A stretch of DNA of 19,164 nt from Candidatus Undinarchaeota archaeon (GTDB taxonomy: Archaea; SpSt-1190; JASMDC01): NCBI GenBank assembly GCA_964519305.1, contig CAZFHY010000031.1, positions 1 to 19,164 on the forward strand. Direction: 5' to 3'. The translations under genes and the position numbers were made by a program. Below are positions 1-19,164 of the stretch, in pieces. How positions within the stretch are numbered: position 1 is the stretch's first letter; each line of letters opens with the position of its first letter. A model generated the notes under the pieces. It did no database searches. It was not told where the DNA came from and was given only the letters and a program-made list of their open reading frames with translations.

Positions 1-3000
1 AAGAAGCGTATGGATGGCGGTGAGTACGTAGCCATCTACTATGCTGGTCCGATCCGTAGCGCTGGTGGTACTGCTAACGCGCTATCCGTGCTTATCACTG
101 ATTTCCTGCGTTCGAAGTTCGGTTACCAGTCGTACGATCCACTTGATAATGAAGTGGAGCGGTTCGTCACAGAGCTCGAGGACTATGACTCAAAGATCAC
201 GAACCTCCAGTTCAGGGTGTCGGCCAAAGACATCCGGACAATGGTACGTCACATCCCTGTCGAAGTGAGCGGTGATGCCACTGAGAAACTGGAGGTCCTT
301 TCCTACAAGGACCTCGAACGTGTCGAGACCAATAATATCCGGTCGGGCGTATGTCTAACACTATCCTGTATCTACGGTAAAGCATTCAAGCTCCTAAAGC
401 GTGTCAAAGGGAACCTTTCCGGTTTCGAACTCGACCACTGGACGTTCCTTGAACAGATGATGTCAAAGGGAAAGAAAGAGGAGAAGACGTCCGGTCCGAA
501 AGGAGTCGAACCCTCCTTCAAGTACATGGGTGAGCTCCCTGGAGGGCGCCCGGTCTTCTCGTACCCGTCCCGGGCAGGCGGATTCCGTCTCAGGTACGGC
601 CGTAGCAGGAACACGGGTTTCGCTGCTTGTGGCATCCATCCTGCCACGATGGTCGTTACGGACGAGTTCATCTCTGTTGGTACACAGCTCAAGGTAGAGT
701 ATCCAGGAAAAGCGACCGTCGCCATGCCAGTGGACGGCATCGAGGGACCGATCATCAAGACCAAGAACGGTTCCGTGGTACGTGTAACGTCGATAGAGCA
801 GGCACGCGAACTAAAGGGGAATATCGAAAAGATACTCTTCATGGGGGACCTCTTGGTCGGTTTTGGTGAGTTCGCAACGAACGGAAAGAAGCTCCTGCCC
901 GCCGGCTGGTGCGAGGAGTGGTGGGAGGGGCTCGTGAGGGAGAGAAACGAAGAACCTAGCACACCTGGTACGTTCTCCGAAGCACTCTCGATCTCACAGC
1001 GGTTAGATATCCCTCTCCACCCGCGATGCACACACTTCTACTCTGACCTGTCACGGGACCAGCTGTCCGAACTGGTACGATGGCTAGGGACAGGTTCCCT
1101 CGAGCGTGTTCCCCGTGATGATACAGATGAGGGTACTTTCCTCTACCTCAGGCTCAAACATGATGATGCTGGCAAGGATGCTCTCGAGATCGCGTGCATA
1201 CCGCACTCGGTGACCGACAGTGAAGTGGTCATTGAGGGGGAAGCAGAAGAGGTCCTCGTCACTCTAGGCATATTGGATGGCGACAAACTCGATCCCTCGC
1301 GACTGTTGGGGGTCCTGGACGAACTACAGGACTCATCTGCTCTAGAGGCAATCAATGCTGTTTCACCGGTCATGATCAAACCTTTCGCGCCATCCTACAT
1401 CGGTACGAGGATGGGTCGTCCAGAAAAAGCGGAGAGACGCATCATGAAGGGATCGCCCAACCTTCTTTTCCCTGTTGGGCGTGATGATGCAGGGGAGAAG
1501 AAGCAGCGCTCGCTCATCAAAGCAGCTCAACACAAGAGCGTGCGTGTAGAGCTTGGAAAACGCTTCTGCCCTGAATGCAAGGAATTCACCTTTTTAGCGA
1601 ACTGTCCTACCTGTGGGAGTATCACCGAACAACGAAGAGTATGTGCGCGGTGCGGCCAGGTTACGAACCTAGATATGCACTGTGAAATACCTACTAAGAG
1701 ATCGGACAACTACTTCCTATCGTTCAAGCAGCTCATCGAGGCAGCAGCAGGTAACGTGGGTGAACGGGTGCCGGCCGAACTGAAGGGGGTTGTCGGTATG
1801 AGCTCACGCTCCAAGATACCAGAGCGTATCGAGAAAGGGATACTTCGTGCCAAGCATCGTGTGCTGGTGAACAAGGATGGAACGATAAGGTTCGACGGTA
1901 CGGATACTCCGATTACGCATTTCACCCCCAAGGAAATCGGTACATCGGTGGAGCGTCTAAGAGAGCTCGGATACGTCGAGGACGTACATGGGAAGGTGCT
2001 CGAACAAGAAGATCAAGTTGTCGAACTCCTCCCTCAAGATATCCTTGTATCTGATTTCAGGGATTCTGACGGTAAGATCGCTTCGGGAGCTGACTACTGT
2101 ACTCAGATCTGCAACTTCGTCGATGACCTCCTTGAGAAGTACTATGGAATGCCACGATTCTACAACGTTTCATGTCGTGAGGACCTCGTAGGACATCTTG
2201 TGATCACGCTTGCACCACATACATCAGCAGCTATCATGGGAAGGATCATCGGATTCACACCCGCCAGAGTATACTATACCCATCCTCTGCTCATTGCTGC
2301 ACGGAGACGGAATGCGGATGGTGATGAAGATTCGATATCGATGGCTCTCGATGCTCTCCTCAACTTCTCACGATCGTTCCTTCCTGATACACAGGGTGCC
2401 CGGACCATGGACGCCCCTCTCGTGCTCACGCTTATACTGAACCCGTCCGAGATAGATGACGAGGTTTGGGACATGGACACAAGTCAAAGCTATACTCCTG
2501 CGTTCTACGAGATGACGTATGATTACCCTGATCCAAAGGATGCAAAAAAAGCGCATAATGTAGAGCAGTATGCAGATCGGATTGGTAAGAATTCCCAGTA
2601 TGAGGGTCTTGGATTCAACATAGGAACGAGCGATGTTAGTGCTGGACCTACTATTACTGCGTACAAGTTCTTAGGAAGTATGCTCGAGAAAGTGGACGCG
2701 CAACTTGAACTTGGACGTAAGATTCGTGCGGTGAACGAAGACGGCGTTGCTGGTCTCGTTCTAGGAACACACTTTCTTAGTGACATAAAAGGGAATATCC
2801 GCACTTTCACCAGACAGAAGATCCGATGCATCACATGTAACTCAAAGTATCGTCGAATCCCTCTTACAGGCGTATGTACAAAATGTGGTGGTAAGTTAAT
2901 CCTTACAGTCGCTCCAGGAAGTGTTTCAAAGTACATCGAACCTTCAACAAAGATCGCTGAGAACTTTGAGATAACGCCGTATCTTAATCAGCAACTGGAA

Positions 3001-3078
3001 GTAGCGTCACGACGTCTTCTGTCCATGTTCGGAAAAGAAAAGCACCAGCAAGTAGGTCTGGATGCTTTTCTTTCATGA
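1..3078 (+). CDS. polC: DNA polymerase II (PolD) large subunit DP2, 5'-truncated by the window edge
   Basis: DP2 motifs YYAGPIRSAGGTA, GGFRLRYGRSRNTG, RMGRPEK, KDGTIRFD, LAPHTSA, catalytic RRRNADGDED, MDAPLVL. Zn-binding CxxC pairs (CPEC/CPTC, CITC/CTKC) and a C-terminal PIP-like QVGLDAFL. The frame is open from base 1, so ATG 10 is probably internal. No intein-sized insertion seen. Confidence 0.98.
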   Translation, partial: KKRMDGGEYVAIYYAGPIRSAGGTANALSVLITDFLRSKFGYQSYDPLDNEVERFVTELEDYDSKITNLQFRVSAKDIRTMVRHIPVEVSGDATEKLEVLSYKDLERVETNNIRSGVCLTLSCIYGKAFKLLKRVKGNLSGFELDHWTFLEQMMSKGKKEEKTSGPKGVEPSFKYMGELPGGRPVFSYPSRAGGFRLRYGRSRNTGFAACGIHPATMVVTDEFISVGTQLKVEYPGKATVAMPVDGIEGPIIKTKNGSVVRVTSIEQARELKGNIEKILFMGDLLVGFGEFATNGKKLLPAGWCEEWWEGLVRERNEEPSTPGTFSEALSISQRLDIPLHPRCTHFYSDLSRDQLSELVRWLGTGSLERVPRDDTDEGTFLYLRLKHDDAGKDALEIACIPHSVTDSEVVIEGEAEEVLVTLGILDGDKLDPSRLLGVLDELQDSSALEAINAVSPVMIKPFAPSYIGTRMGRPEKAERRIMKGSPNLLFPVGRDDAGEKKQRSLIKAAQHKSVRVELGKRFCPECKEFTFLANCPTCGSITEQRRVCARCGQVTNLDMHCEIPTKRSDNYFLSFKQLIEAAAGNVGERVPAELKGVVGMSSRSKIPERIEKGILRAKHRVLVNKDGTIRFDGTDTPITHFTPKEIGTSVERLRELGYVEDVHGKVLEQEDQVVELLPQDILVSDFRDSDGKIASGADYCTQICNFVDDLLEKYYGMPRFYNVSCREDLVGHLVITLAPHTSAAIMGRIIGFTPARVYYTHPLLIAARRRNADGDEDSISMALDALLNFSRSFLPDTQGARTMDAPLVLTLILNPSEIDDEVWDMDTSQSYTPAFYEMTYDYPDPKDAKKAHNVEQYADRIGKNSQYEGLGFNIGTSDVSAGPTITAYKFLGSMLEKVDAQLELGRKIRAVNEDGVAGLVLGTHFLSDIKGNIRTFTRQKIRCITCNSKYRRIPLTGVCTKCGGKLILTVAPGSVSKYIEPSTKIAENFEITPYLNQQLEVASRRLLSMFGKEKHQQVGLDAFLS

Positions 3079-3117
3079 AAAAATTCTGAAAATATTAGTG
3101 GAAAAAATCCAATTCTA

Positions 3118-3230
3118 TTGACCTTATAATCTACTGATAGAATTAAAGATAATCTACTATAATGACATTATAATATACTGTTATAGTTACTATACTATAC
3201 TACTATATGACCATCTAATTTACTGGTAAT
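3118..3230 (+). repeat. AT-rich array of degenerate direct repeats (consensus TGACNTTATAATNTACTG), about 22 bp period
   Basis: Full copies TGACCTTATAATCTACTG (3119), TGACATTATAATATACTG (3163), TGACCATCTAATTTACTG (3208). Partial cores GATAATCTACT (3148) and TATACTATACT (3191) lie between them. Confidence 0.85.
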
Positions 3231-3231
3231 A

Positions 3232-3239
3232 TTTATCAA
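3232..3239 (+). promoter_or_regulatory. Possible archaeal TATA box for the InsA-like gene
   Basis: TTTATCAA ends 26 bp upstream of ATG 3265, directly after the last repeat. The region is very AT-rich, so specificity is low. Confidence 0.4.
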
Positions 3240-3264
3240 TCTAAACAACCATATTCTTTTCATT

Positions 3265-3717
3265 ATGATCAAGAAGAAACGCAGCAATAAATTCTCTGAT
3301 ATATCCTGTACAAACAAATCATGCAGAAATTTTGATGTGCCTGGACTTGGCAACATAATCAGCAATGGTACTTATCATATTCAGGATGGTATAGTAAGGA
3401 AATTCTTCTGTAGAACATGCAAGAAATCTTTTTGTGATCGAACAAGGACAGCTTTCTATGATCTCAGAACAAAGGAAAAGCTGTTCTTTGATGCTCTGAC
3501 ACTCATTATCAAAGGCAAGAGCATAAGGTCCGTTGCGCGTGATCTTGATACTACTCTTGATACTGTGCGTTCTTGGCTTGCTCGAGCAGCATCACATCCG
3601 GATGATGTGAATCCTACTTTGTCAAATCGTACTGGATTCGATGTCAATAGGCTTAATGAACTATGGTCATCAGTGCGTGCCAAACGTTTTTCTGAATGGA
3701 AGAATCGATACAAATGA
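3265..3717 (+). CDS. IS1-family InsA-like protein (Zn ribbon + HTH) without a DDE domain
   Basis: CTNKSC...NGT...FFCRTCKKSF zinc ribbon, then HTH KGKSIRSVARDLDTTLDTVRSWL. Ends shortly after RLNELWSSV, which resembles the IS1 ExDELWxFV motif. Intact 150 aa ORF; no InsB follows. Confidence 0.85.
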   Translation: MIKKKRSNKFSDISCTNKSCRNFDVPGLGNIISNGTYHIQDGIVRKFFCRTCKKSFCDRTRTAFYDLRTKEKLFFDALTLIIKGKSIRSVARDLDTTLDTVRSWLARAASHPDDVNPTLSNRTGFDVNRLNELWSSVRAKRFSEWKNRYK

Positions 3718-3725
3718 GTTATTGA

Positions 3726-4676
3726 CTACTTACCCTTCTTAATCGCGAAGGCAAGTCCTAGCATTAGCTTTGAGAACAAACCCATCCTCTCCTCTCCTTC
3801 AGATATGCTCGGTTTCTCGGGTATTCTGACATCGCTCACATGATCGTATAGATCCCGTATCCTATCGTCAATATTCTGATTACCTGTAGTATCGTTCTCG
3901 ATATTATCAAGATGACCTCTATCGATTATTTGATCCTTCTTGAAGAAATGAAGAAATTGTCTCTCTTCACTGATTGAGTAATCGATAGTAGCAGGTGATT
4001 GCGAGGAGGGATCACATTCGATATCCATTCTTTCTGTTATCTTTCCATCTTCACGATATTGATGAATAATCATATCGATATGTGGACGATCGCCTTCCCA
4101 CCTAATATTGTGGAACTCGTACACGAGCGCATCATCAGTCGTGTAAGAAGTGACCTTCATTGGAACGGCACTCGTGAGCAGTAGACCGTTCGTCACTTTG
4201 TTTCCAATCTCATCACCGCTCTCTCTGAGGAACGCCTCTACATCATCTAGTGCAAGATGCTCCCAATTTGAGATGAAACATGGTCTATCGTCCTTATTTC
4301 GGAAGCTGATCTCATATCCATGAACTTCTCCCTTATCGTCCGTGAATGCTGGAAGATAATGGCGGTATCCGTTCGCACCAAGGAACGTTTCCTCGACGAG
4401 ATATGGATCCTTGATACCAGCGGCTTTTGCCATTGATAACCATACAAGAGACTGCTCCAGACAATTGCCTTCACCGGACTTCAGCGCTTCTTTAGTGGTC
4501 CTGATCCCATAAGGAGCATCGCCCCTAAGGAGTTCTTCGTATCCATAATCGACGTTATCGACAACCCAATCGTAGATCAAACCAGCCTTCTCAATATCTT
4601 TCATGTCATCGTTTACGATAGTACCAACTATTTCGCTTACAGCTTCCTGGTCGATATACGATATTGGCACTGTCAC
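3726..4676 (-). CDS. Transglutaminase-like (papain-fold Cys) domain protein
   Basis: IYDWVVDNVDY...ALKSGEGNCLEQSLVWLSMAKAAGI...RHY matches the transglutaminase-like core with catalytic Cys and His. The GTG start is supported by a TATA-like box just upstream. Confidence 0.85.
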   Translation of the reverse strand: MTVPISYIDQEAVSEIVGTIVNDDMKDIEKAGLIYDWVVDNVDYGYEELLRGDAPYGIRTTKEALKSGEGNCLEQSLVWLSMAKAAGIKDPYLVEETFLGANGYRHYLPAFTDDKGEVHGYEISFRNKDDRPCFISNWEHLALDDVEAFLRESGDEIGNKVTNGLLLTSAVPMKVTSYTTDDALVYEFHNIRWEGDRPHIDMIIHQYREDGKITERMDIECDPSSQSPATIDYSISEERQFLHFFKKDQIIDRGHLDNIENDTTGNQNIDDRIRDLYDHVSDVRIPEKPSISEGEERMGLFSKLMLGLAFAIKKGK

Positions 4677-4695
4677 TAAATAGCACGATAGTCTC

Positions 4696-4703
4696 GATAT
4701 AAA
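4696..4703 (-). promoter_or_regulatory. Probable TATA box (TTTATATC) for a leaderless transglutaminase-like transcript
   Basis: Minus strand reads GGGAACG-TTTATATC; the box lies 20-27 bp upstream of GTG 4676. Confidence 0.55.
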
Positions 4704-4736
4704 CGTTCCCTTGGTAGTATAGTTGAAATAATGTAG

Positions 4737-4830
4737 TATAGTAGTATAGTATATAGTAATACCAGTAAATTATAATGTCAATATTATCAGTAGATTATAA
4801 GGTCAAATAATCCAGTAACTAATAATTAAA
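4737..4830 (-). repeat. Second array of the same repeat, inverted relative to 3118-3230
   Basis: Plus strand CAGTAAATTATAATGTCA (4763-4780), CAGTAGATTATAAGGTCA (4788-4805) and degenerate CAGTAACTAATAATTAAA (4813-4830), 25 bp apart. TATAGTAGTATAGTATA (4737-4753) is the exact reverse complement of 3191-3207. Confidence 0.85.
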
Positions 4831-4855
4831 TGTACTTCATTACCACGAAAACTAC

Positions 4856-5743
4856 CTATAATGCTAAAACTCTGCCAGCTCTCATCGAACTTAATCCTTC
4901 AGCTTCGTTCTCCAACTCTTCTACTGTTGTTTTCTCACCGTCATTAGTATGAGCGAACAGGTTCTCCAGGTCGAGCTGGAATCTGTACTGACCTAAAGAG
5001 AGGTTGAAACGGACGCCGTTCTTCTCCATGTATTTCTCAGCGAAGTACGGTTTGCTGTGATATCGGCTCGTCTCTTCGATCTCAGTCTTGCGTGAGCCCC
5101 ACCACACTTTCTTGAACTCGCCTTCCTTAATCTTAACATCGACATAGGAGAGTATAAGTCCATCGGTTAGGTGGATATCATCCCGCATATAATTCGCTAT
5201 CTTTACCTCCGACCACCCTTCGCCTTTCCTCAGCTTCATTGCCAAAGCGTCGATTGTCTGCTCGATCTTTCGCTCGTGGATGACCTTTCCGATACCTGAA
5301 CGTTCTCCTTCATCGAGCATACCGTACGCAACGTCCAGAGCGACCAACTCCTCCATCCACTCCGATCCATCATGGAGGGCTGCATGAGTTGCTTCATGAG
5401 CCAGAATATAGTCAACGATTGCAGCGTTCCCGGCATGTTTAGTGTTCACATATATCTCAGTTTCGCTCGGTCCGAGCAATCCAGGTAGCCGGGTAAGCCC
5501 TCCGATCCCGTCATCGAGTTCAGCGTACCAGAGGTTGTCGGTCGAATAGGTGTAATTGGCATCGAAATGCCGATTGACCTTACCGAATATCCAATCACCC
5601 TCGCGTCTCAGATCATATGTCGAATTGATCGTGTCAGCACACTCTGGTGCATTGACGTACTCCCTGATATGGTATTTGAGGTCCTTGACGATCTCCTCAG
5701 TATCGATGAAGTCAACACCGATGGAGTCGATGAGCTCGTCCAT
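4856..5743 (-). CDS. Putative zinc metallopeptidase (HExxH), family unresolved
   Basis: IYVNT...YILAHEATHAALHDGSEWMEE: HExxH preceded by a beta strand, with downstream Glu candidates for the third ligand. 295 aa, acidic, no obvious signal peptide. Confidence 0.7.
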   Translation of the reverse strand: MDELIDSIGVDFIDTEEIVKDLKYHIREYVNAPECADTINSTYDLRREGDWIFGKVNRHFDANYTYSTDNLWYAELDDGIGGLTRLPGLLGPSETEIYVNTKHAGNAAIVDYILAHEATHAALHDGSEWMEELVALDVAYGMLDEGERSGIGKVIHERKIEQTIDALAMKLRKGEGWSEVKIANYMRDDIHLTDGLILSYVDVKIKEGEFKKVWWGSRKTEIEETSRYHSKPYFAEKYMEKNGVRFNLSLGQYRFQLDLENLFAHTNDGEKTTVEELENEAEGLSSMRAGRVLAL

Positions 5744-5839: not shown

Positions 5840-6997
5840 TCATCTGTCACGCGAACGAATGCAATTTGCCACGAGCTCGACGATATCAGCAGCTTGCGCA
5901 TCGGATCCGGACCTTACGAGCCCTTGTGAAATCGCTCCAAGGCATGTTTGACAAACCGTTGCCACGGTTGTCGCTCCCGTTTCGAGCAGTTCACGAACCC
6001 GCTCGTCAGAAATGGCTTCAGATACTTCATTGCGTGTGACCCTCATCCCACCACCTGATCCACAGCACGTGGCGTCGATCCCATGACGGTGCGGTTCCAC
6101 CAGTTGATGTGCCAGTTCTTTAATGACGTTCCTTGGGGCCTCGAATATACCTGCGCCCCGACCGATCTCACACGGATCATGATAGGTTACGATATCATAC
6201 GTGCGGTCGAGCGCGATTCGCTCCTCCTCGATAAGCGTAGCGATGTACTGGGAATGGTGGATAACCTCGACATCGCCCCCAAGACGGCCCTTCAGCACAT
6301 GATAGCAGGAAGGGCACGTGCAAACGACAAGCTCTGCACCGGTAGCGTTGATAGCAGAGATGTTATGTTCTAAGGCCGCTTCTGCCTCATCATCCAGGCC
6401 CAGCATCGATAATGGGGCCCCGCAGCACCATTCTTTCTCACCCAATAGCACAAAACGCTCGCCTGCAGCGTTCATGACCCTTACCATGGACTCGGCCACT
6501 GTTGCATACTGTCCTGAGAAAGATGTCTGACAACCAAGGAAGTACACAACATCCCCCGTCACTCCCACGTGGGGAGATACAATATCTTCTATCATCATTG
6601 ACCAGAGAAGACGTTCGCGCTGTAACATCCCATAGATGTTTCCGTGCTCAGATATCGCATTGGAAAGCTGTGAGACCGTGTCCGGCATTTCCTTACAGGC
6701 ACATACCTTTCCACGAAGGTCCTGGACGACACGGGGAGTATCGACACGTCCTGGACAGACCTCGAGACACCGCCGACAGTAGGTGCAAAGGTAAGTGAGG
6801 TTGCTGAACTGGGAGAGGTTATGAGTTGCCCGCGACAATTGTTGGCTGAACTGGGCGGGACCAAGATACTCTCTGCTCCTTAACGATTCTGAAAGGGGAC
6901 AGACCGTTGTACACGTTCCGCACATGATACATCTGTCGCGTTCGCTCCGTATCCCCGTGACCTTGTTCATGGGCTCAGGTCCCTCTTTTGAGGTCAT
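5840..6997 (-). CDS. glpC: GlpC/HdrD-like Fe-S oxidoreductase (two 4Fe-4S motifs + two CCG domains), likely G3P dehydrogenase subunit C
   Basis: CIMCGTCTTVCP, CTYCRRCLEVCP, WCCGAP, CPSC, YHDPC, CCGSGGG, CQTC. The start overlaps the glpB stop (ATGA). The gene symbol rests on context. Confidence 0.82.
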   Translation of the reverse strand: MTSKEGPEPMNKVTGIRSERDRCIMCGTCTTVCPLSESLRSREYLGPAQFSQQLSRATHNLSQFSNLTYLCTYCRRCLEVCPGRVDTPRVVQDLRGKVCACKEMPDTVSQLSNAISEHGNIYGMLQRERLLWSMMIEDIVSPHVGVTGDVVYFLGCQTSFSGQYATVAESMVRVMNAAGERFVLLGEKEWCCGAPLSMLGLDDEAEAALEHNISAINATGAELVVCTCPSCYHVLKGRLGGDVEVIHHSQYIATLIEEERIALDRTYDIVTYHDPCEIGRGAGIFEAPRNVIKELAHQLVEPHRHGIDATCCGSGGGMRVTRNEVSEAISDERVRELLETGATTVATVCQTCLGAISQGLVRSGSDAQAADIVELVANCIRSRDR

Positions 6998-8067
6998 TGC
7001 GCATCTCCCTCCGAACCGGCCTCGATACCGGTCATCAGCGCATGGCCAAGATCCTTCCTTCCAGGTGTGCGGACCAGTGATCCTGCTGCACGAAGGTTCG
7101 TGAAACCTTCCACATTACAGGAAGCATCAGTATCGAGCCCGGACCGCTGTATCGAGTCAGGATCAAAGGGCTCATGTAGCAGACCGGCCCTAATACCTGT
7201 GATGGGTTCGATGAGCGCTTGCTTGGAAACCACGAGACCTCTTGGGATGAGCCCGCCCGTGGCGAGCACGAAACGATCGCCTTTCAATGTTATCCTGCCC
7301 TCAGGTCCTGCTACACATATCGATGATACCCTCCCCCCATCGTGATCGATTGAGACGGCCATACCTGGTACAACGGACGTCCGCTCCCGAACCGCTCTGA
7401 GCAGACCCAGAGCGAGCCTTGCCCCAGTTACAGAGGGAGGGGGACAGGGTAGTTCGAATACCAAGGGAAGGTCGGCCTTCTCGATACAGTTCCTGACCTG
7501 ACCATGTCCCTCGATCCCGAGCAATGCAGGTATGCAGAGCGGATCATCCGATCCCTCAGCAGCATCCGAGAGGGTGCTGACCAGCAGACCGGGATCGCGT
7601 TCTACTTGCTTTGCGGCCTCATAACAAGTCATTCCGTTATAGACCGGGAGCACACGCATCTCGATCGAGATGTTCTTGCTCGAAAGCGACCATGTCGAGA
7701 GTCCCATGTCTATGTCAGTGATCCCCAGGTCGACCACAGTAACACGATTGAGGTTGGCGATGTCGCCGGCAGCCAAGGATGTCGGTGCGATGTCAGCACT
7801 GAGAGTGGATCCCAATGGGGACAGTAGTTTATGTCGTCGACGACCACCTTCAACGTACCCCAGTTCAGGGAGCTCTTTCGTAAGGAGGGCGAGCGCTCGT
7901 TCCTGCTTGCTACGGTCGATGCCGGAAGGATATGATATGAGCCCCGACGACATGAATGTCTCGCCCAGAGCCCCTCGCACTATTGCGATTCGTTCCTCTC
8001 GTGCAGAAAGGGCGGCCGCACATCCCGCCATACCTGATCCAACGACAACAAGGTCGTACGTTGTCAT
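6994..8067 (-). CDS. glpB: Anaerobic glycerol-3-phosphate dehydrogenase subunit B
   Basis: Flavin-binding VVVGSGMAG, GlpB-type FELPCPPPSVTGARL, FVLATGG, NLRAAGS. Lies between glpA and glpC-like. Confidence 0.88.
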   Translation of the reverse strand: MTTYDLVVVGSGMAGCAAALSAREERIAIVRGALGETFMSSGLISYPSGIDRSKQERALALLTKELPELGYVEGGRRRHKLLSPLGSTLSADIAPTSLAAGDIANLNRVTVVDLGITDIDMGLSTWSLSSKNISIEMRVLPVYNGMTCYEAAKQVERDPGLLVSTLSDAAEGSDDPLCIPALLGIEGHGQVRNCIEKADLPLVFELPCPPPSVTGARLALGLLRAVRERTSVVPGMAVSIDHDGGRVSSICVAGPEGRITLKGDRFVLATGGLIPRGLVVSKQALIEPITGIRAGLLHEPFDPDSIQRSGLDTDASCNVEGFTNLRAAGSLVRTPGRKDLGHALMTGIEAGSEGDAQ

Positions 8068-9698
8068 TGGCGAGCACCTTCCGTATCATCTCTGTTCTTC
8101 TCGGAAGCTTCTTGCCCGCCCTCATCTGTCCGCAGTGCTTGAAGAGTGAGCGGGATCCCTCCGGTCAGAGTGTATGTCTTGTAGAGGAGCATGAGCTGGC
8201 GCATCTGGTTCTCGTTGTGCGTGAGTGATCCACCACGTAGCCGAGAGGCCAAGAAGATACTCAGGTCTTCTACAGGATCGTAGAACGAACCCTTGATCCC
8301 ACACTCACTACCCTGGAGCTCTTGAAGGAGCACCGCAACAGCACATGACGCGCACCGAGTACCCTGGCAGCTCCCGTTACCGAGACGTGTGCGTCGTCGG
8401 AGGTCGTCGAGGGAGCGCACCCAACCCGTCCGGACCATGAGTGCCACCTCCGATGTCCTGATCCCTTCGCATGGACAGATGATCGGGCCTTCACTACTTG
8501 TGGCCAAGCTACCGCCGTGTCGGGAACGGACCCGCTCGTCCACGAACGCAGCGGCCGACCAGAGGCCAGGATACGTCTCACCCGGTTCAATGATAGGTTC
8601 GGTTGCGGTTGTACAACGGGCACGTACACCTAGTTTACGGCACACGAGGTCCGCGGCCTCTTCAGCGATTAGTCGGAAGGTCGTGAGCTTTCCACCTGCC
8701 ACGAGGACGAGGTTACCGAGGTCGCGTACTAAGTGAGCCCGTGCCATCTGTCGCCCGGGCTCTGGTGATGATATTCCAGTGATCAGCGACCGCACTCCTG
8801 AGTACGAACGAATAATCCGCATCGAGCCGCTCGTCGGGCATAGATCGGCAGCTTCTCGCACTAGTAGTTCGATCTCTTTGATACTCGGAGACGGCCGACG
8901 GAATCCATCGTCGTCGACGGGGACCGAGGTGGTACCGAAGATGGTTGCCGTTTGGTTGGGGACGAATATATCGCCGTCGGACGGTGGACGGAGCCGATGG
9001 ACCACACCATCGAAGATTCGCTCAGAGAACACGAGCATGGTGCCCCGAGTGTGCGCGAGTTGTACATGAGCTTCGCCCGGGGATGAGGTCTTTCCGATCC
9101 ATGGTCCGGTTGCATCGACGCATATATCAAAACCGACACGTTCGATGCTGCCATCCCGATGCCGTATCTTTGCCTCTCCTTCCTTGAGCTCTATGACCTC
9201 TGCATGGTTGATGATATGCGCACCTCTCTCATCAGCGCTACGAGCGAGGTGGTACACGAGGGCGAAAGGATCGATGGCGGCATCATCAGTCATGAAACCC
9301 GCCACGACCTTATTTGAGATGAGCGGCGATCGCTCAATAATATCTCGAGTATCGAGCATCTCTGTGCGGACACCGGTGTCCCTTGCGCAAACAGCGAACT
9401 GTTCACGATACTCCTCTGGATCGCTCTCCAGGGCGACAAAGAGCCCTTGATACTCTTCGACGAGGGGGCCAGCGGTTCTCCTTAAGATGCGGTTCTCCTC
9501 GGCACATGCTCGAGCTGTAGTGGGGTCAGAGACAGCGTAACGACCACCTCCATGGAGAAGTCCATGACATCGCCCGGTCGTACCTGCGCACAGGTCGTCG
9601 CGCTCCACGAGCACACATCCGATCCCTCTGAGCGTCAGGTCCCAAGCGATACCAAGACCGATGACACCACCACCAATGATGAGCACATGCTCCCGCAT
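8064..9698 (-). CDS. glpA: Anaerobic glycerol-3-phosphate dehydrogenase subunit A
   Basis: IIGGGVIG, TTGRCHGLLHGGGRYAVSD, RPPSDGDI, GGKLTTFRL, and a C-terminal BFD-like 2Fe-2S region ICPCE...RRRTRLGNGSCQGTRC. Confidence 0.93.
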   Translation of the reverse strand: MREHVLIIGGGVIGLGIAWDLTLRGIGCVLVERDDLCAGTTGRCHGLLHGGGRYAVSDPTTARACAEENRILRRTAGPLVEEYQGLFVALESDPEEYREQFAVCARDTGVRTEMLDTRDIIERSPLISNKVVAGFMTDDAAIDPFALVYHLARSADERGAHIINHAEVIELKEGEAKIRHRDGSIERVGFDICVDATGPWIGKTSSPGEAHVQLAHTRGTMLVFSERIFDGVVHRLRPPSDGDIFVPNQTATIFGTTSVPVDDDGFRRPSPSIKEIELLVREAADLCPTSGSMRIIRSYSGVRSLITGISSPEPGRQMARAHLVRDLGNLVLVAGGKLTTFRLIAEEAADLVCRKLGVRARCTTATEPIIEPGETYPGLWSAAAFVDERVRSRHGGSLATSSEGPIICPCEGIRTSEVALMVRTGWVRSLDDLRRRTRLGNGSCQGTRCASCAVAVLLQELQGSECGIKGSFYDPVEDLSIFLASRLRGGSLTHNENQMRQLMLLYKTYTLTGGIPLTLQALRTDEGGQEASEKNRDDTEGARQ

Positions 9699-15270: not shown

Positions 15271-16446
15271 ATGCATGCTGAACGACGGGTCCTGACTCGC
15301 CCACGCTTCTCTTTTCCAGCAGGGGAGCCCGTCACGGCCTCCGCAGCGCTGGGCTTGACGGGCAAACATCCGTCCGGAGCGCACCATACACAACGCTTGG
15401 CCGCGACAATGCTCATTGGAGGACGGTACCGTAAAGTGCTCGTTACACTATCGCCACACGCTCTCGTCATTGAGCGGTGCGACCGACAGGTCCGTCTCGT
15501 TGCGTGCGCCCCCCATGCGATCGAGCAGGGTGGTGATGACACCCTTGATCATGATATCTGGACCGGAGATGAGGCTATTGAGCTTATCCGGTCCGGTGCC
15601 GTGGACCGTTGTGTGATATCGCTCCATAACCGTGGTCTGCTCGACTTCAATCGTTTTCCATCACAACCGTTTGTCCAGTATGGCCGCACAGTTAGGAACC
15701 CACCCTACAGCCAGCCCAATCCATACCACGGTTCACTTGACGCGAACGTGGTGCTCGACCTTCACGGATTCAGGTCAGGGAGCCGCAGCCGAGGTATAAT
15801 CCTGGGGATCGGGAGGGTCGACGAGCTGACAATGAGGGATAGTAGGTTCGTGGCCGCAGTCCGGGGCGGCGCGTCCTTTGGATCCCGCCTCCTTGTGAAA
15901 ATCGCTCGTGAGGCGCTCCGGCGTGTCCCCGGCAAGACACTAGAACTACATGCATCCCTTGACATGGCACGGCTCTCCCGAATTGCAGGCAACACGCCTC
16001 GACTCGTTCTCAGTGATGAACGCTTGACAGGAATGGGATTCGAGAGTGGAGAGCGTGTCGCCCTCGGGCTCATTCATGATCGTAGCGGCCGGGTTGCAGG
16101 GGTGGAGGCGTGCCGTGAGGCCGCGGACACCGACGGTGAGCTCATCGTCGAGTCCGGCGACCGTGAAAGGGTGGAACTCCCGCCGTCATTCAAGACAACG
16201 GAACGGCTCGACCTGAGCGGCCGAAACGTATTCACGTTCACCGGACGAGGATTCCGTCTTCGCAAGGGGAGCGTATTCCGTCGCTATCTCCCCGGATTGC
16301 GTAACTACACTTTCCGCTATCTTGCACAGAAAGGTGTCGCTTGTGTCCAGGTCGAACAGACCAAGGAAGTACGAAAGACCTTCGCGCAACAGCTCACCGC
16401 GTCAGGGTGCGTCTTTCGCGTTCCAGAAGATCAACGTTGGATGTAG
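15271..16446 (+). CDS. N-formylglutamate amidohydrolase-like Zn-dependent hydrolase
   Basis: Motifs in the expected order: APHA, DIWTG, RGLLDFNR, PYH, VLDLHG, IILG, VQVE. True start may be ATG 15409. The 3' end overlaps the convergent gene by 16 bp. Confidence 0.65.
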   Translation: MHAERRVLTRPRFSFPAGEPVTASAALGLTGKHPSGAHHTQRLAATMLIGGRYRKVLVTLSPHALVIERCDRQVRLVACAPHAIEQGGDDTLDHDIWTGDEAIELIRSGAVDRCVISLHNRGLLDFNRFPSQPFVQYGRTVRNPPYSQPNPYHGSLDANVVLDLHGFRSGSRSRGIILGIGRVDELTMRDSRFVAAVRGGASFGSRLLVKIAREALRRVPGKTLELHASLDMARLSRIAGNTPRLVLSDERLTGMGFESGERVALGLIHDRSGRVAGVEACREAADTDGELIVESGDRERVELPPSFKTTERLDLSGRNVFTFTGRGFRLRKGSVFRRYLPGLRNYTFRYLAQKGVACVQVEQTKEVRKTFAQQLTASGCVFRVPEDQRWM

Positions 16447-19164
16447 GCATCATAGTTGTAGTACTGGCGTGCGCCGTAATAGCTGCTGTATTCAGAGTAC
16501 GTTGGCGTTACGGCCGCGGCCTGTGCCTGCGCGAGCGCTGCCGCCTCTTCCTCTTGCTTCCGCTTTCGGTATACGATTAGCACGAATGTTAGCCCTATCA
16601 GGACGACAATGGCGACGATTGCACCTACCGACGATAGGAAGGACGACGTATCCTCGTCCCCGCCCCCGCCGGTCACGACCTCGTCATCCCCGTCATCGTC
16701 ACCCCCATCAGAGCTTGCCCGTGGTGTCGCGGTGGCAGTGGTTCCCGATGAGCTTCCGCCGCCACCACCGTCATCATTGCCCTTGTCAGTACGATGGTCT
16801 TTGGTGTAGTCGAGCACGGTGCTATCGGACCCGCTCCCCCCGGTATCGGTTTCTGCCCCTGTTCCGGACCCTGTGTCGGGTGGCGGTGTGGGCGACGGGC
16901 CATCATCGTCCCCGTCATCCTCCTCAGCAAATACGTCGATCACCTTGCGGTCGTACCCCTTCAGTTCCATGTACTTGAGCAGGTCGTACCCGGCCGCCTT
17001 CTGCGCCCCTTTATCCTGGTCCAGGAGATAGTCGGCCCTCTTGCGTCCCATGCATCCCCCCAGACAGGCAGTGAGGTTAGCGGGCACCGACAGGCATTGG
17101 TGGCAACGACCACAAACACCCCGGTCCTCCGCCTCTGTGTACAGCTTCGCGCACACGTCCCCCAGGAGCGCGTTCCCCACACACTTCGCGACACACGTGT
17201 CCTGCCCCAGTGTCGTCACACGACCTGCACAGGAGGAGCACTGCATACAAGCGCCCATACACCCGTCGAGTTCAGGATGATTTCCACAGAACCGGTTACA
17301 GATTGCAGCGAGCAGTCGTGAGCGGTCGACGCACCGTTCCACAAGACATCGCCAAATCTCCGCCGGGCTCTTCCCAGTATCGCACAGTCGACATTCACGA
17401 CAGGATCCGTCAGTGATGTTGTACTGTTGTGCCAGAGCGTTGCACAACCGCATCCGTTCCATGAACGAACGGAGCATATCCCGGATATGGCCGTAGCATT
17501 CCTGCCCCCGCATGGTAGCAATCGCCTTGAGAGCGTACTTTATGGCCCGAACGTACTGCTCTCGCTCGAACTCTTTCTTTGCCTTCTCGATGTACTCGCG
17601 CACCTCGGACGCCTTGGAGTGATCGCAGATGATGTCCTCGGTCCCCTCACGTCCGCTGTAGGACAGCTCGTAGAGCTCCTCGGCCTCCCTGATGCGTTCG
17701 ATGGCCTCCTTGCGCAGAGCGTCAGGATCGGTGTTCCGGGTCGGGGTTATGTACTCGCTGTGTTTGCTATCTTGATATAGCGCAGCGTTCTTGAGCAGCT
17801 CGATTGCGCGGTCGGCGTACCTGATGGCCTCGCGATACTCGGCCATGTCGTACTCCTCCTCAGCTTTCTCGATGAGCTCCCAGGCGACTATCTTGACCTC
17901 CTCGTTAGTGCTCTTGGCATGGAGCGCCTTTGCGGTCTCGATCCGCTGTCTTGCGAGCATCGCCAGTTCGTTCTGCTCCTCACCTTCCAGACCGGACACA
18001 AGGTTCTCCAGATACTCCTGTAGCTCGGGATCGCTATCCCGGGCCGCTTCCAAGGGGTCCACCATCTTGTAGCAGCCGTCCCGTGTGGCCGGATTGGGGA
18101 TGAGGTCACATATGGTCCTCACCCTGTCATAGGCTTCGTTGCACATGTCGATGACATCGATGAGCGGATTCCCTTCCAGTCCGACGTTCTTGGCCTTCTT
18201 CCCTTTGTTGCATATCTTAGCAACGGTGTTGAATGGAAGGTCCGTCTCTCGTTTGATGGCCTTCAGTTCCCGTTTCTTCGCTTTCTTGGCAGCATTGAGC
18301 AGGCAGCCGGAAAGGCTTTCATCTTCGATAATCGAAAGGCAGATGGGCACTGACTCATATGGTGCCTTGGACATCTTCAGCTGGGCGATACCGGAGAAGC
18401 ACGAGTCACGGATTTCTCGGACATCATCAGGGGAATGGGGAATACGCTCGCACGCCTCGATGGCTCGGGGGAATCCGCCAAGGTCGTCGCGGAATGCGAC
18501 GTTAGTAGCAACCTGTGTGTAGCAGTTGCCGCGCTCCATCCCCGAGGCGATCCATGTGCCGCACACGTCCTCGGCCCTCAACGGGGGACGGTTGGTGACC
18601 ACGACATTGAGCACGTCATGATAGCACCGGTCCCGTACATGGCTTCCGCGGTTCGTCGTAAGGATGGTGTTGATGCAATCGCCGTTGCCACAGTTGTCTG
18701 TAATGCATGTGCCTGAATAGTGCCAGCAGTTCTTCCCCCATTCGCCGCACTCCTTATCCTTGTGCACGCATCTGGAGCGGAAGCATCCTTCGTCGATGCA
18801 GGGGATGTAACGCGCAGCATGCTCGTTGTCGTACATGGACGAGTCCCATTCCTCGTCCTTGGCCTTCACCCGAGAGTTGATCTTGTGACAGATGGTCAGG
18901 GCCTTGGTGGTGTCAGCGTATCGCAGGGAGTAGGCAGTTGAGCGGTAACATTCGTTGCGGTCGGCCCATAGTGCTTCAAGACAATCAGTATGGCAGTCGT
19001 TACGGTGGCTTGCAGCGATGGCGTTCTTGTCGCACGGGTCCTCGGTAGGGCATGTCACGTGTTTGGGATCACCTTTCTCATCGCACTTCCACGGATCTGC
19101 CGCGCACGTCGTACCGAAGTCAATGATCCGCGAGTCGTAGGGGGAGCACCCGCCCACGACGACG
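16431..19164 (-). CDS. Large cysteine-rich single-pass membrane/surface protein, 5'-truncated by the window edge
   Basis: Frame stays open to the window end. Contains C..I....RDxCY repeats, a duplicated helical unit, three CxxCxxC...CxxxC repeats, a G/D/T/S-rich linker, TM helix VGAIVAIVVLIGLTFVLIVY followed by RKRK, and a Tyr-rich tail. Confidence 0.88.
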   Translation of the reverse strand, partial: VVVGGCSPYDSRIIDFGTTCAADPWKCDEKGDPKHVTCPTEDPCDKNAIAASHRNDCHTDCLEALWADRNECYRSTAYSLRYADTTKALTICHKINSRVKAKDEEWDSSMYDNEHAARYIPCIDEGCFRSRCVHKDKECGEWGKNCWHYSGTCITDNCGNGDCINTILTTNRGSHVRDRCYHDVLNVVVTNRPPLRAEDVCGTWIASGMERGNCYTQVATNVAFRDDLGGFPRAIEACERIPHSPDDVREIRDSCFSGIAQLKMSKAPYESVPICLSIIEDESLSGCLLNAAKKAKKRELKAIKRETDLPFNTVAKICNKGKKAKNVGLEGNPLIDVIDMCNEAYDRVRTICDLIPNPATRDGCYKMVDPLEAARDSDPELQEYLENLVSGLEGEEQNELAMLARQRIETAKALHAKSTNEEVKIVAWELIEKAEEEYDMAEYREAIRYADRAIELLKNAALYQDSKHSEYITPTRNTDPDALRKEAIERIREAEELYELSYSGREGTEDIICDHSKASEVREYIEKAKKEFEREQYVRAIKYALKAIATMRGQECYGHIRDMLRSFMERMRLCNALAQQYNITDGSCRECRLCDTGKSPAEIWRCLVERCVDRSRLLAAICNRFCGNHPELDGCMGACMQCSSCAGRVTTLGQDTCVAKCVGNALLGDVCAKLYTEAEDRGVCGRCHQCLSVPANLTACLGGCMGRKRADYLLDQDKGAQKAAGYDLLKYMELKGYDRKVIDVFAEEDDGDDDGPSPTPPPDTGSGTGAETDTGGSGSDSTVLDYTKDHRTDKGNDDGGGGGSSSGTTATATPRASSDGGDDDGDDEVVTGGGGDEDTSSFLSSVGAIVAIVVLIGLTFVLIVYRKRKQEEEAAALAQAQAAAVTPTYSEYSSYYGARQYYNYDAYIQR

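Follow-up and report, generated by a model that had tools for sequence, protein, structure and literature searches.

A probable immobilised IS1-family remnant and its candidate operator sites in an undinarchaeal genome

What is a small gene for a transposase-type DNA-binding protein doing between two inverted arrays of one repeat, next to a DNA polymerase gene of an archaeon? The question is raised by contig C31 of a 3.63-Mb Candidatus Undinarchaeota assembly with a guanine-cytosine (GC) content of 59.6%; all 19,164 bp of this contig constitute the window analysed here. Between polC, which here ends with its 3' side and encodes the large subunit DP2 of DNA polymerase II (domain E-values from 1e-51 to 1e-115), and an open reading frame (ORF) of 295 amino acids (aa) that carries a HEATH motif and matches no family, two convergent genes are found whose stop codons are 8 nucleotides (nt) apart, one encoding a 150-aa InsA-like protein and the other a 316-aa transglutaminase-like protein. 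A first reading made from the letters alone (the sequence-only reading) had considered a domesticated protein with its own operators, a non-autonomous or invertible element, or a site that loops the two arrays. Our analysis points to an immobilised remnant of an insertion sequence (IS) of the IS1 family, whose InsA-like protein would regulate its own gene and a small host regulon through operators derived from the inverted repeats (IRs) of the element, a reading to which we assign a probability of roughly 0.6.

Three lineages were available for comparison, namely the source genome (G000), a sister species of the same genus (G001) and a third lineage represented by a 1.2-kb metagenome contig (L043). 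A further 39 archaeal genomes were searched; these are too distant for a comparison of the polC junction and none of them contains an orthologue of the 150-aa protein.

The repeated unit is an asymmetric site of about 24 bp, TGACC-N3-TAAT-N-TACTG-rTAT(ta), which occurs in three direct copies upstream of the 150-aa gene (3119, 3163 and 3208 on the + strand) and in two copies before the transglutaminase-like gene (4805 and 4780 on the - strand). With up to two mismatches allowed, TGACNNTNTAATNTACTG matches the window five times where 0.08 matches are expected, and none of 200 shuffled sequences reached five. The source genome contains 13 sites at up to one mismatch, 12 of them exact, and none for the reversed pattern, and all 12 genomic TAATNTACTG decamers have TGAC upstream in register. 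Scored with a weight matrix derived from them, the 13 sites reach between 30.9 and 43.3 bits, and the next best place in the genome reaches 15.4. Five further matches of at least 14 bits were obtained, against six in a reversed-sequence control, so the set is not surrounded by a halo of decayed copies.

Eight of the 13 sites are located outside the cassette, in GC-rich spacers. A start codon on the same strand follows 57–146 nt downstream of ten sites, and among the outside sites there are five which face host start codons at a distance of 77–112 nt. Each of the five host starts, like both starts in the cassette, is preceded by an AT-rich TATA-like octamer 27–34 nt upstream, and at the five host genes the solo or paired site begins 47–81 nt upstream of this box, a position relative to the TATA box that is usual for archaeal activators. 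As in the regulon of a transcription factor, a discrete and conserved motif is thus found in consistent orientation before several promoters including that of the putative regulator itself. The idea of a domesticated protein with its own operators is favoured by these data, but the two-gene unit originally proposed for it was drawn too narrowly: with eight sites outside the cassette, seven of them conserved in the sister genome, the unit would rather be a small regulon.

The same distribution bears on the suggestion that an AT-rich island beside a DNA polymerase II gene, with inverted arrays of what might be an initiator-binding repeat, is a replication origin, and it is true that, up to a distance of 1.5 kb from the single orc1/cdc6 gene, no AT-rich repeat region was seen. 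That gene is however found on another contig (C2), the flanking genes converge on the cassette rather than diverge from it, a gene under purifying selection lies between the arrays, and the cumulative GC skew of the 154-kb contig of the sister genome shows no inflection at the cassette. Moreover, single copies of the site precede five host promoters and 8 of 13 sites are elsewhere, which makes an origin extremely unlikely.

Within the cassette, the inverted relationship first noticed between the two spacers proved correct in every part, i.e. the identity of 3118-3139 with 4785-4806, the match of 3163-3183 to 4760-4780 at 19 of 21 positions, the exact match of 3191-3207 to 4737-4753, and the common block order. 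In detail, the outer arms (3118-3144 and 4780-4806) comprise 27 nt and are 93% complementary, the first 22 being identical, the inner arms (3159-3184 and 4759-4784) comprise 26 nt at 88%, and the third pair 17 nt at 100%. What had been missed are a third copy on the left (3208-3231), the unequal spacing (44 and 45 nt in the left array, 25 nt in the right one) and the eight copies elsewhere in the genome. Read towards the genes, the outer site is followed on either side by the inner site, the TACTATAC block, the TATA-like box and the start codon, which means that the 'inverted arrays' are two similarly built promoters of convergent genes. The repeat block is confined to the cassette, where all four genomic matches of ACTATACTAC are located. 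The TATA-like octamers of the 150-aa gene begin 23 nt past the start of the site at 3208, and the box at 3229-3238 presumably acts as its promoter. Neither Rfam (gathering thresholds) nor ARAGORN returned a match in the window, so the repeats do not represent a known RNA.

Inverted arrays that bracket 1.6 kb in the source genome and 0.8 kb in the sister genome could also belong to an invertible segment or to a nucleoprotein switch that loops the DNA between them. Yet in all three lineages the cassette is oriented identically with respect to the 295-aa gene, and no recombinase family was detected among the 12 window ORFs scanned, two of which match no family at all. The region 2800-5200 lies in one contig, in one orientation, without a single difference or alternative joint, in four of four public assemblies from two studies, which may include the source sample and whose contigs would hide rare variants. 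Two promoters of convergent genes that share operators are the simpler description, and we regard an invertible segment or a looping switch as very unlikely; on looping as such the data point neither way. The agreement of the four assemblies also makes it improbable that one array is an assembly artefact, a possibility that the sequence-only reading had listed.

The classification of the 150-aa protein rests on several lines of evidence. Residues 45-145 match the NCBIfam model NF033558 ('IS1 family transposase') with an E-value of 7.7e-9 and 35.8 bits, where the curated cut-off is 100. A Cys4 zinc ribbon is formed by C15, C20, C49 and C52, with C49 invariant and the remaining three conserved to at least 90% among 48 sequences, and at about 71-110 the ribbon is followed by an HTH (helix-turn-helix), with Pfam HTH models matching residues 77-108 below their cut-offs (E-values from 4e-4 to 8e-3). 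The AlphaFold model (mean predicted local distance difference test score, pLDDT, 89.2) consists of a beta-ribbon at 31-57 and six subsequent helices, including 71-82, 87-93 and 98-110. Foldseek returned no PDB match at E<=0.001; partial HTH or zinc-ribbon look-alikes (LiaR, DosR, NrdR) appear at E-values of 0.2-1.

An exhaustive phmmer run yielded 699 relatives at E<=1e-3; the threshold of E<=1e-10 is reached by 104 and that of E<=1e-30 by three. Ten of the relatives were scanned against Pfam: DDE_Tnp_IS1 is present in three (P0022, P0063 and P0088), a MarR-type domain behind the module in two and HTH_3 in front of it in three, and the remaining ones are an HTH repeat protein and a stand-alone InsA-like ORF. 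Judged by the relatives that bear DDE_Tnp_IS1, homology of the protein to the zinc-ribbon/HTH N-terminus of IS1-family transposases is clear, and the earlier assignment as InsA-like stands on the family match below cut-off, the four cysteines, the HTH helices and these relatives. Close relatives of similar length are scarce, numbering six at E<=1e-3 in a collection of 5.8 billion proteins; other orthologues are 81–86% identical and a paralogue, P0006, is 52% identical.

In the transposase relatives, LDELW(T/S)FV-KKK closes the segment behind the HTH, and in P0022 LDELW occupies residues 126-130, at the start of the DDE_Tnp_IS1 match (124-214). The aspartate of this motif is, we assume, the first catalytic residue of DDE transposases. 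All three orthologues have LNELW instead (Asn131), and the KKK codons read RAK. The 150-aa protein thus keeps the first residues of a former DDE domain and ends 19 residues past LNELW. Downstream of its gene neither a DDE frame nor a slippery A-run was found. PF03400, the IS1-type DDE family, was detected in neither the source nor the sister genome, with positive controls in E. coli and M. acetivorans, a result that is no proof of absence as IS copies can stay unassembled in draft genomes. Because the cassette has no DDE frame and shows no mobility, we file it as a derivative of an IS and not as an IS proper.

The 150-aa gene is single-copy in the source genome, and its place between polC and the 295-aa gene is common to source and sister genome. 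On the contig of the third lineage the right-hand flank is shared, and the 44 nt of left flank are not alignable to the 3' flank of polC. The protein has 150 aa without indels in all three lineages, and the ratio of nonsynonymous to synonymous divergence (dN/dS) of 0.11 indicates that it is under purifying selection, at a synonymous divergence (dS) between source and sister genome of 0.86.

The sites are conserved as well. The sister genome contains 13 exact sites, which include the same arrays of three and two. In the three lineages the arrays and the TATA-like boxes have been kept and the spacers between them diverge. Seven solo sites occupy orthologous places in the two genomes; in these pairs the 14 constant positions are identical in 98 of 98 cases, compared with 61% at the four free positions within the site, 64% over the 40 nt upstream and 54% over the 36 nt downstream. 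Among the 39 other archaeal genomes one contains a single exact copy of the motif and 38 contain none, and the reversed control likewise gives one match in one genome. Motif and orthologue thus occur together in two of two genomes, which provides weak support for a functional tie since both belong to one genus.

A few single sites deserve a separate remark. Where the source genome has the site C11:3446, the sister genome has a head-to-head pair (C51:50926-50971); by eye, a deletion of about 40 nt in the source genome has removed everything after the TGACC block of the partner, and the TATA-like box downstream stays. At C62:105444 of the sister genome (L040, about 1501-1518) there is a one-mismatch site, TGCC for TGAC, in an AT-rich spacer, which may be due to chance; the ORF downstream of it, at a distance of about 125 nt, resembles an Lrp/AsnC-type regulator by eye. 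At the ATP-grasp locus, C5:70194-70211 in the source and C84:131766-131783 in the sister genome (L003, L032), 89% homology over 1518 nt stops at the last base of the 18-nt core; beyond this break the source genome has the ATP-grasp gene and the sister genome unrelated ORFs for a 143-aa and a membrane protein.

The connection between the sites and the ends of an IS is provided by a second InsA-like ORF in the sister genome (contig C29; L019, about 7594-8449). It encodes 153 aa that are 53% identical to the 150-aa protein, and ends just past a run of eight A, where a second frame continues that aligns to residues 145-247 of the 383-aa IS1-family transposase P0063 (39%, E 2e-19) and is thus homologous to the catalytic region of a full-length enzyme. 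This alignment ends where an inverted variant of the motif starts, and a matching variant is placed 83 nt before the listed start of the ORF. Both tips are extended outward by GGTGC, with TGACC outermost in the motif. By its sequence, then, this paralogue is an IS1-family element that has been truncated and bears the motif at either tip. No target duplication was detected there, and a source-genome homologue of L019 5000-9800, sought as its empty site, was not found. Just outside the left tip there is also a degenerate inverted partner of the motif, similar to the head-to-head pairs at host loci.

With the ends of IS1A from E. coli K-12 the paralogue tips have in common that they open with GGTG-N-TG and contain, 17-19 nt further in, a TACTGA block, which is a weak similarity, and the best ungapped match of the IS1A ends to the site consensus covers 11 of 18 specified positions, a likeness that is suggestive only. 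As to the original remark that the repeats do not look like typical short IS1 ends, the link to IS ends has become a direct one through the truncated relative with the motif at its tips.

Could the cassette still be mobile? It might be a non-autonomous IS1-derived element consisting of InsA with or without cargo, mobilisable in trans, with the solo sites as scars of insertions, excisions or one-ended events. Its outer copies do form a 27-nt inverted repeat of 93%, it lies in a low-GC island, its transglutaminase-like cargo is present, reduced or absent depending on the lineage, the sister genome harbours a truncated IS1-family element whose ends are the same, and one solo site coincides with an exact synteny break. 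Against this, the cassette is single-copy, its place is unchanged between the two genomes whose flanks can be read, and its orientation is unchanged among three lineages, at a dS of about 0.86; no empty or flipped polC junction was seen, the sister genome being the sole comparable one. No direct repeat is shared by the flanks of 3118 and 4806, which agrees with the earlier failure to see a target duplication. Asparagine replaces the LDELW aspartate, the slippery run and the DDE domain are missing, and PF03400 was found in neither of the two draft genomes, which can lack IS copies. Finally, neutral scars would not be expected to keep 98 of 98 constant positions at orthologous loci nor to form a discrete set free of decayed copies. 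A non-autonomous element, one of the options of the sequence-only reading, is in our view rather unlikely.

The tie between protein and sites is one of arrangement, and AT-rich sites in promoters are where many archaeal regulators act. The 24-bp sites could accordingly be operators of another regulator, with the InsA-like gene merely its most heavily regulated target. Five of the 13 sites, however, crowd around the InsA-like gene, the paralogous IS1-family remnant carries the motif at its tips, where the InsA of this family binds, and motif and orthologue are found together in both genomes, with one chance-level match among the 39 others. An unrelated regulator is thus unlikely, and the InsA-like protein remains the better candidate for the binder of the sites, which we infer from this arrangement.

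The role of the transglutaminase-like gene can be judged from its fate in the other lineages. The 316-aa protein matches Pfam Transglut_core (E 2.6e-8), with orthologues of 83% and 74% identity in other metagenomes and a 39% paralogue on contig C10. In the sister genome, homology to the window breaks off after 3785 and is taken up again at 4679, with about 23 nt in place of the gene, of which a 19-codon ORF is left that equals the hydrophobic C-terminal tail of the source protein. This ORF, MGVFSKLMLGLAFAKKKGK (L018 8468-8527, - strand), follows the right-hand promoter, and the source protein has a Met at the same position; it may be a micro-protein or a deletion remnant. On the contig of the third lineage the gene is absent and even the 19-codon ORF is gone. 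Right inner site, repeat block and TATA-like box nevertheless constitute the best-conserved non-coding stretch across the three lineages, and inner site and adjacent block the longest invariant one. As the right array and its box are kept where the gene is reduced or absent, the gene is dispensable for the architecture and, judging from these sequences, is cargo rather than core. The proposed co-regulation of the transglutaminase-like gene would consequently hold in so far as the right array precedes it, but not as a defining feature, as only 19 codons of it are left in the sister genome and none in the third lineage.

Taken together, the following picture is proposed. Of an IS1-family element, only the InsA-like DNA-binding module (zinc ribbon and HTH) and multiplied copies of its end sequence would have survived. 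The 150-aa protein is predicted to bind the asymmetric two-block site in the way IS1 InsA binds the left and right inverted repeats (IRL and IRR). At its own promoter, occupancy of the third copy, which abuts the TATA-like box, would switch the gene off, an autorepression like that of the IS1 promoter. The convergent right-hand promoter has two copies before it, arranged in the same relative order; it would drive the transglutaminase-like gene in the source genome and, in the two other lineages, would read into the InsA-like gene in antisense, from its 3' end. With single or head-to-head paired copies upstream of at least five host genes, the 150-aa protein would in addition regulate a small host regulon. 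Only tentatively, and with not quite an even chance in our estimate, do we extend this to a circuit of which both halves derive from one IS, the InsA-like protein having become the transcription factor and the IS ends its operators, with the inward right-hand promoter as an antisense or convergent brake on the regulator and a cargo gene captured in one lineage.

Several observations sit uneasily with this picture. Three of the 13 sites have no evident target on the same strand: C2:154739 is situated where two convergent genes end, C11:3446 points to a HAD-like gene from the side of its 3' end, and C4:116401 has no evident target and no counterpart among the matches of the sister genome. The distance from site to TATA-like box varies between 47 and 81 nt without fixed phase, and the putative targets share no obvious function. 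The right-hand promoter has been kept in both lineages that lack the transglutaminase-like gene. The family match of the protein is below the curated NCBI cut-off, and no Pfam InsA model matches at E<=0.01, only weak generic HTH models doing so. The exact synteny break at the inner end of the ATP-grasp-locus site resembles a recombination or insertion junction more than an operator and hints that solo sites were or are prone to recombination. The comparative sample is a single genus, i.e. two genomes and one 1.2-kb metagenome contig. Finally, GC contents of 22% and 27% in the spacers, 39% in the 150-aa gene and 44% in the 316-aa gene would fit a foreign origin of the island and do not obviously suggest long residence. 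The low GC of the island is retained in the three lineages (window 2800-5200, L018 7800-8750 and L043) despite a dS of about 0.86, and the 3' ends of polC and of the 295-aa gene are likewise GC-poor.

The coordinates of the cassette features and the putative targets are compiled in Table 1.

Table 1. Features of the cassette (window positions) and putative host targets of the 150-aa protein
Feature	Position	Strand	Remarks
Left outer copy of 24-bp site	3119..3142	+	begins TGACCTTATAATCTACTGATAG; 38.4 bits in site matrix; inside 27-nt inverted repeat
Left middle copy of site	3163..3186	+	44 nt after first; conserved in three lineages
TACTATAC-repeat block, left	3188..3207	+	3191-3207 exactly inverted at 4737-4753; conserved
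Left promoter-proximal copy of site	3208..3231	+	3' end enters TATA-like box
TATA-like box, 150-aa gene	3229..3238	+	27-34 nt upstream of ATG 3265; invariant in three lineages
150-aa InsA-like protein	3265..3717	+	Cys4 zinc ribbon and HTH; dN/dS 0.11
316-aa transglutaminase-core-like protein, hydrophobic C-terminal tail	3726..4676	-	putative cargo of right-hand promoter, in G000 only
TATA-like box, right-hand promoter	4696..4704	-	27-28 nt upstream of GTG 4676; ACGTTTATATC invariant in three lineages
Right TACTATAC-repeat block	4714..4756	-	inverted counterpart of left block
Right inner copy of site	4757..4780	-	41.2 bits
Right outer copy of site	4782..4805	-	25 nt from inner copy; 41.9 bits
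Putative target: M20 peptidase			solo or paired site upstream of TATA-like box
Putative target: LarC-N nickel-insertion protein			site upstream of TATA-like box
Putative target: GDPD phosphodiesterase			head-to-head site pair with 109-aa gene, site starts 28 nt apart
Putative target: 109-aa acidic protein, divergent from GDPD gene			partner in head-to-head pair
Putative target: ATP-grasp enzyme	C5:70194-70211		site at this position

Elsewhere in the window, GlpC/GlpB/GlpA-like genes of an anaerobic glycerol-3-phosphate dehydrogenase (5840-9698, - strand; domains CCG and 4Fe-4S, FAD-binding, DAO and BFD) are located between the 295-aa gene and an ABC-2 permease gene. In the sister genome (L018 8736-10971) they are missing at that position and a 173-aa ORF is found instead; a glycerophosphodiester phosphodiesterase gene elsewhere has a motif-bearing promoter. 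A 391-aa ORF (15271-16446, +) and a 908-aa ORF (16431-19157, -) match no Pfam family at E<=1e-4. Both genomes have 3.6–3.8 Mb, compared with 0.6–1.2 Mb in 15 genomes of the same class, an unusual size for the label Candidatus Undinarchaeales.

How does the cassette compare with known systems? According to one study, specific binding of InsA to the IRs of IS1 depends on the zinc finger and HTH of the protein, which also represses a promoter overlapping with IRL and, in competition with the transposase, is bound at both IRs (PMC12428005). The cassette resembles E. coli IS1 in that the gene for a small zinc-finger and HTH protein immediately follows an end repeat with which the gene's own promoter overlaps, and that the same sequence stands inverted at the other side, so that by analogy autorepression and occupation of both ends would be expected. 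Unlike IS1, it has neither an insB/DDE frame nor a slippery A-run, Asn takes the place of the Asp in LDELW, and arrays of three and two sites stand where IS1 has one repeat of about 30 bp per end. It also has no target duplication, a single copy and a fixed location, the protein comprises 150 aa compared with 91 aa in InsA, eight further sites are found at host loci, and the family match is below cut-off.

With the IS1-family transposases P0063 (383 aa), P0088 (365 aa) and P0022, presumably the ISfinder subgroup ISMhu11, the protein shares 29–37% identity from the zinc ribbon to LDELW. Those proteins carry the catalytic domain, whereas the 150-aa protein ends about 19 residues past the motif and has lost the Asp.

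The module is also found without a DDE domain in other contexts, i.e. in MarR/TrmB-type winged-helix fusions of about 290–300 aa (P0040, P0044 and a 300-aa ORF of the archaeal genome G038, L020 4393-5295) and at the C-terminus of proteins of about 500–850 aa that start with HTH_3 (P0016, P0017 and P0049). In contrast to the 150-aa protein these are fused, at 33–40% identity (36% for G038), and the G038 genome contains no copy of the motif. Given such fusions without DDE, the zinc-ribbon/HTH module may have been recruited as a regulator more than once.

For eukaryotes, transcription factors that derive from transposases and bind to the ends of their old element belong to the textbook themes, and to our knowledge such systems are hardly documented in prokaryotes. 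If the 150-aa protein indeed binds the 13 sites, the cassette would show how the autorepressor circuit of an IS can be turned into host gene control, and would represent an archaeal counterpart of the gene networks seeded by transposons in eukaryotes, and what is probably the intermediate in this evolution, the truncated IS whose ends are the same, would still be visible in the sister genome. It would also provide a compact pair of protein and site from a lineage without genetics. No InsA-derived regulon is described in the titles and abstracts searched, a coverage that stops short of subscription journals. The available text of a 2022 review on mobile-element recruitment deals with phage- and antitoxin-derived regulators, with zero occurrences of 'IS1' or 'InsA' (PMC8987985).

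Similar in concept is SETMAR of primates, where a host-fixed transposase-derived protein reportedly recognises dispersed Hsmar1 terminal repeats and affects nearby genes (PMC8327481). SETMAR differs in being eukaryotic, in its SET fusion and in the thousands of sites derived from miniature inverted-repeat transposable elements (MITEs), compared with 13 sites, no fusion and an archaeal host in the present case. Prokaryotic mobile-element proteins that became host transcription factors are described, in the portions available, for TldR, the RNA-guided repressors derived from TnpB of IS200/IS605 elements (bioRxiv 10.1101/2023.11.30.569447), and for the co-option of phage Ner as SfsB (PMC8987985). 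The cassette would share this route with them and, unlike what those portions report of either, both its protein and its cis sites would stem from one and the same IS.

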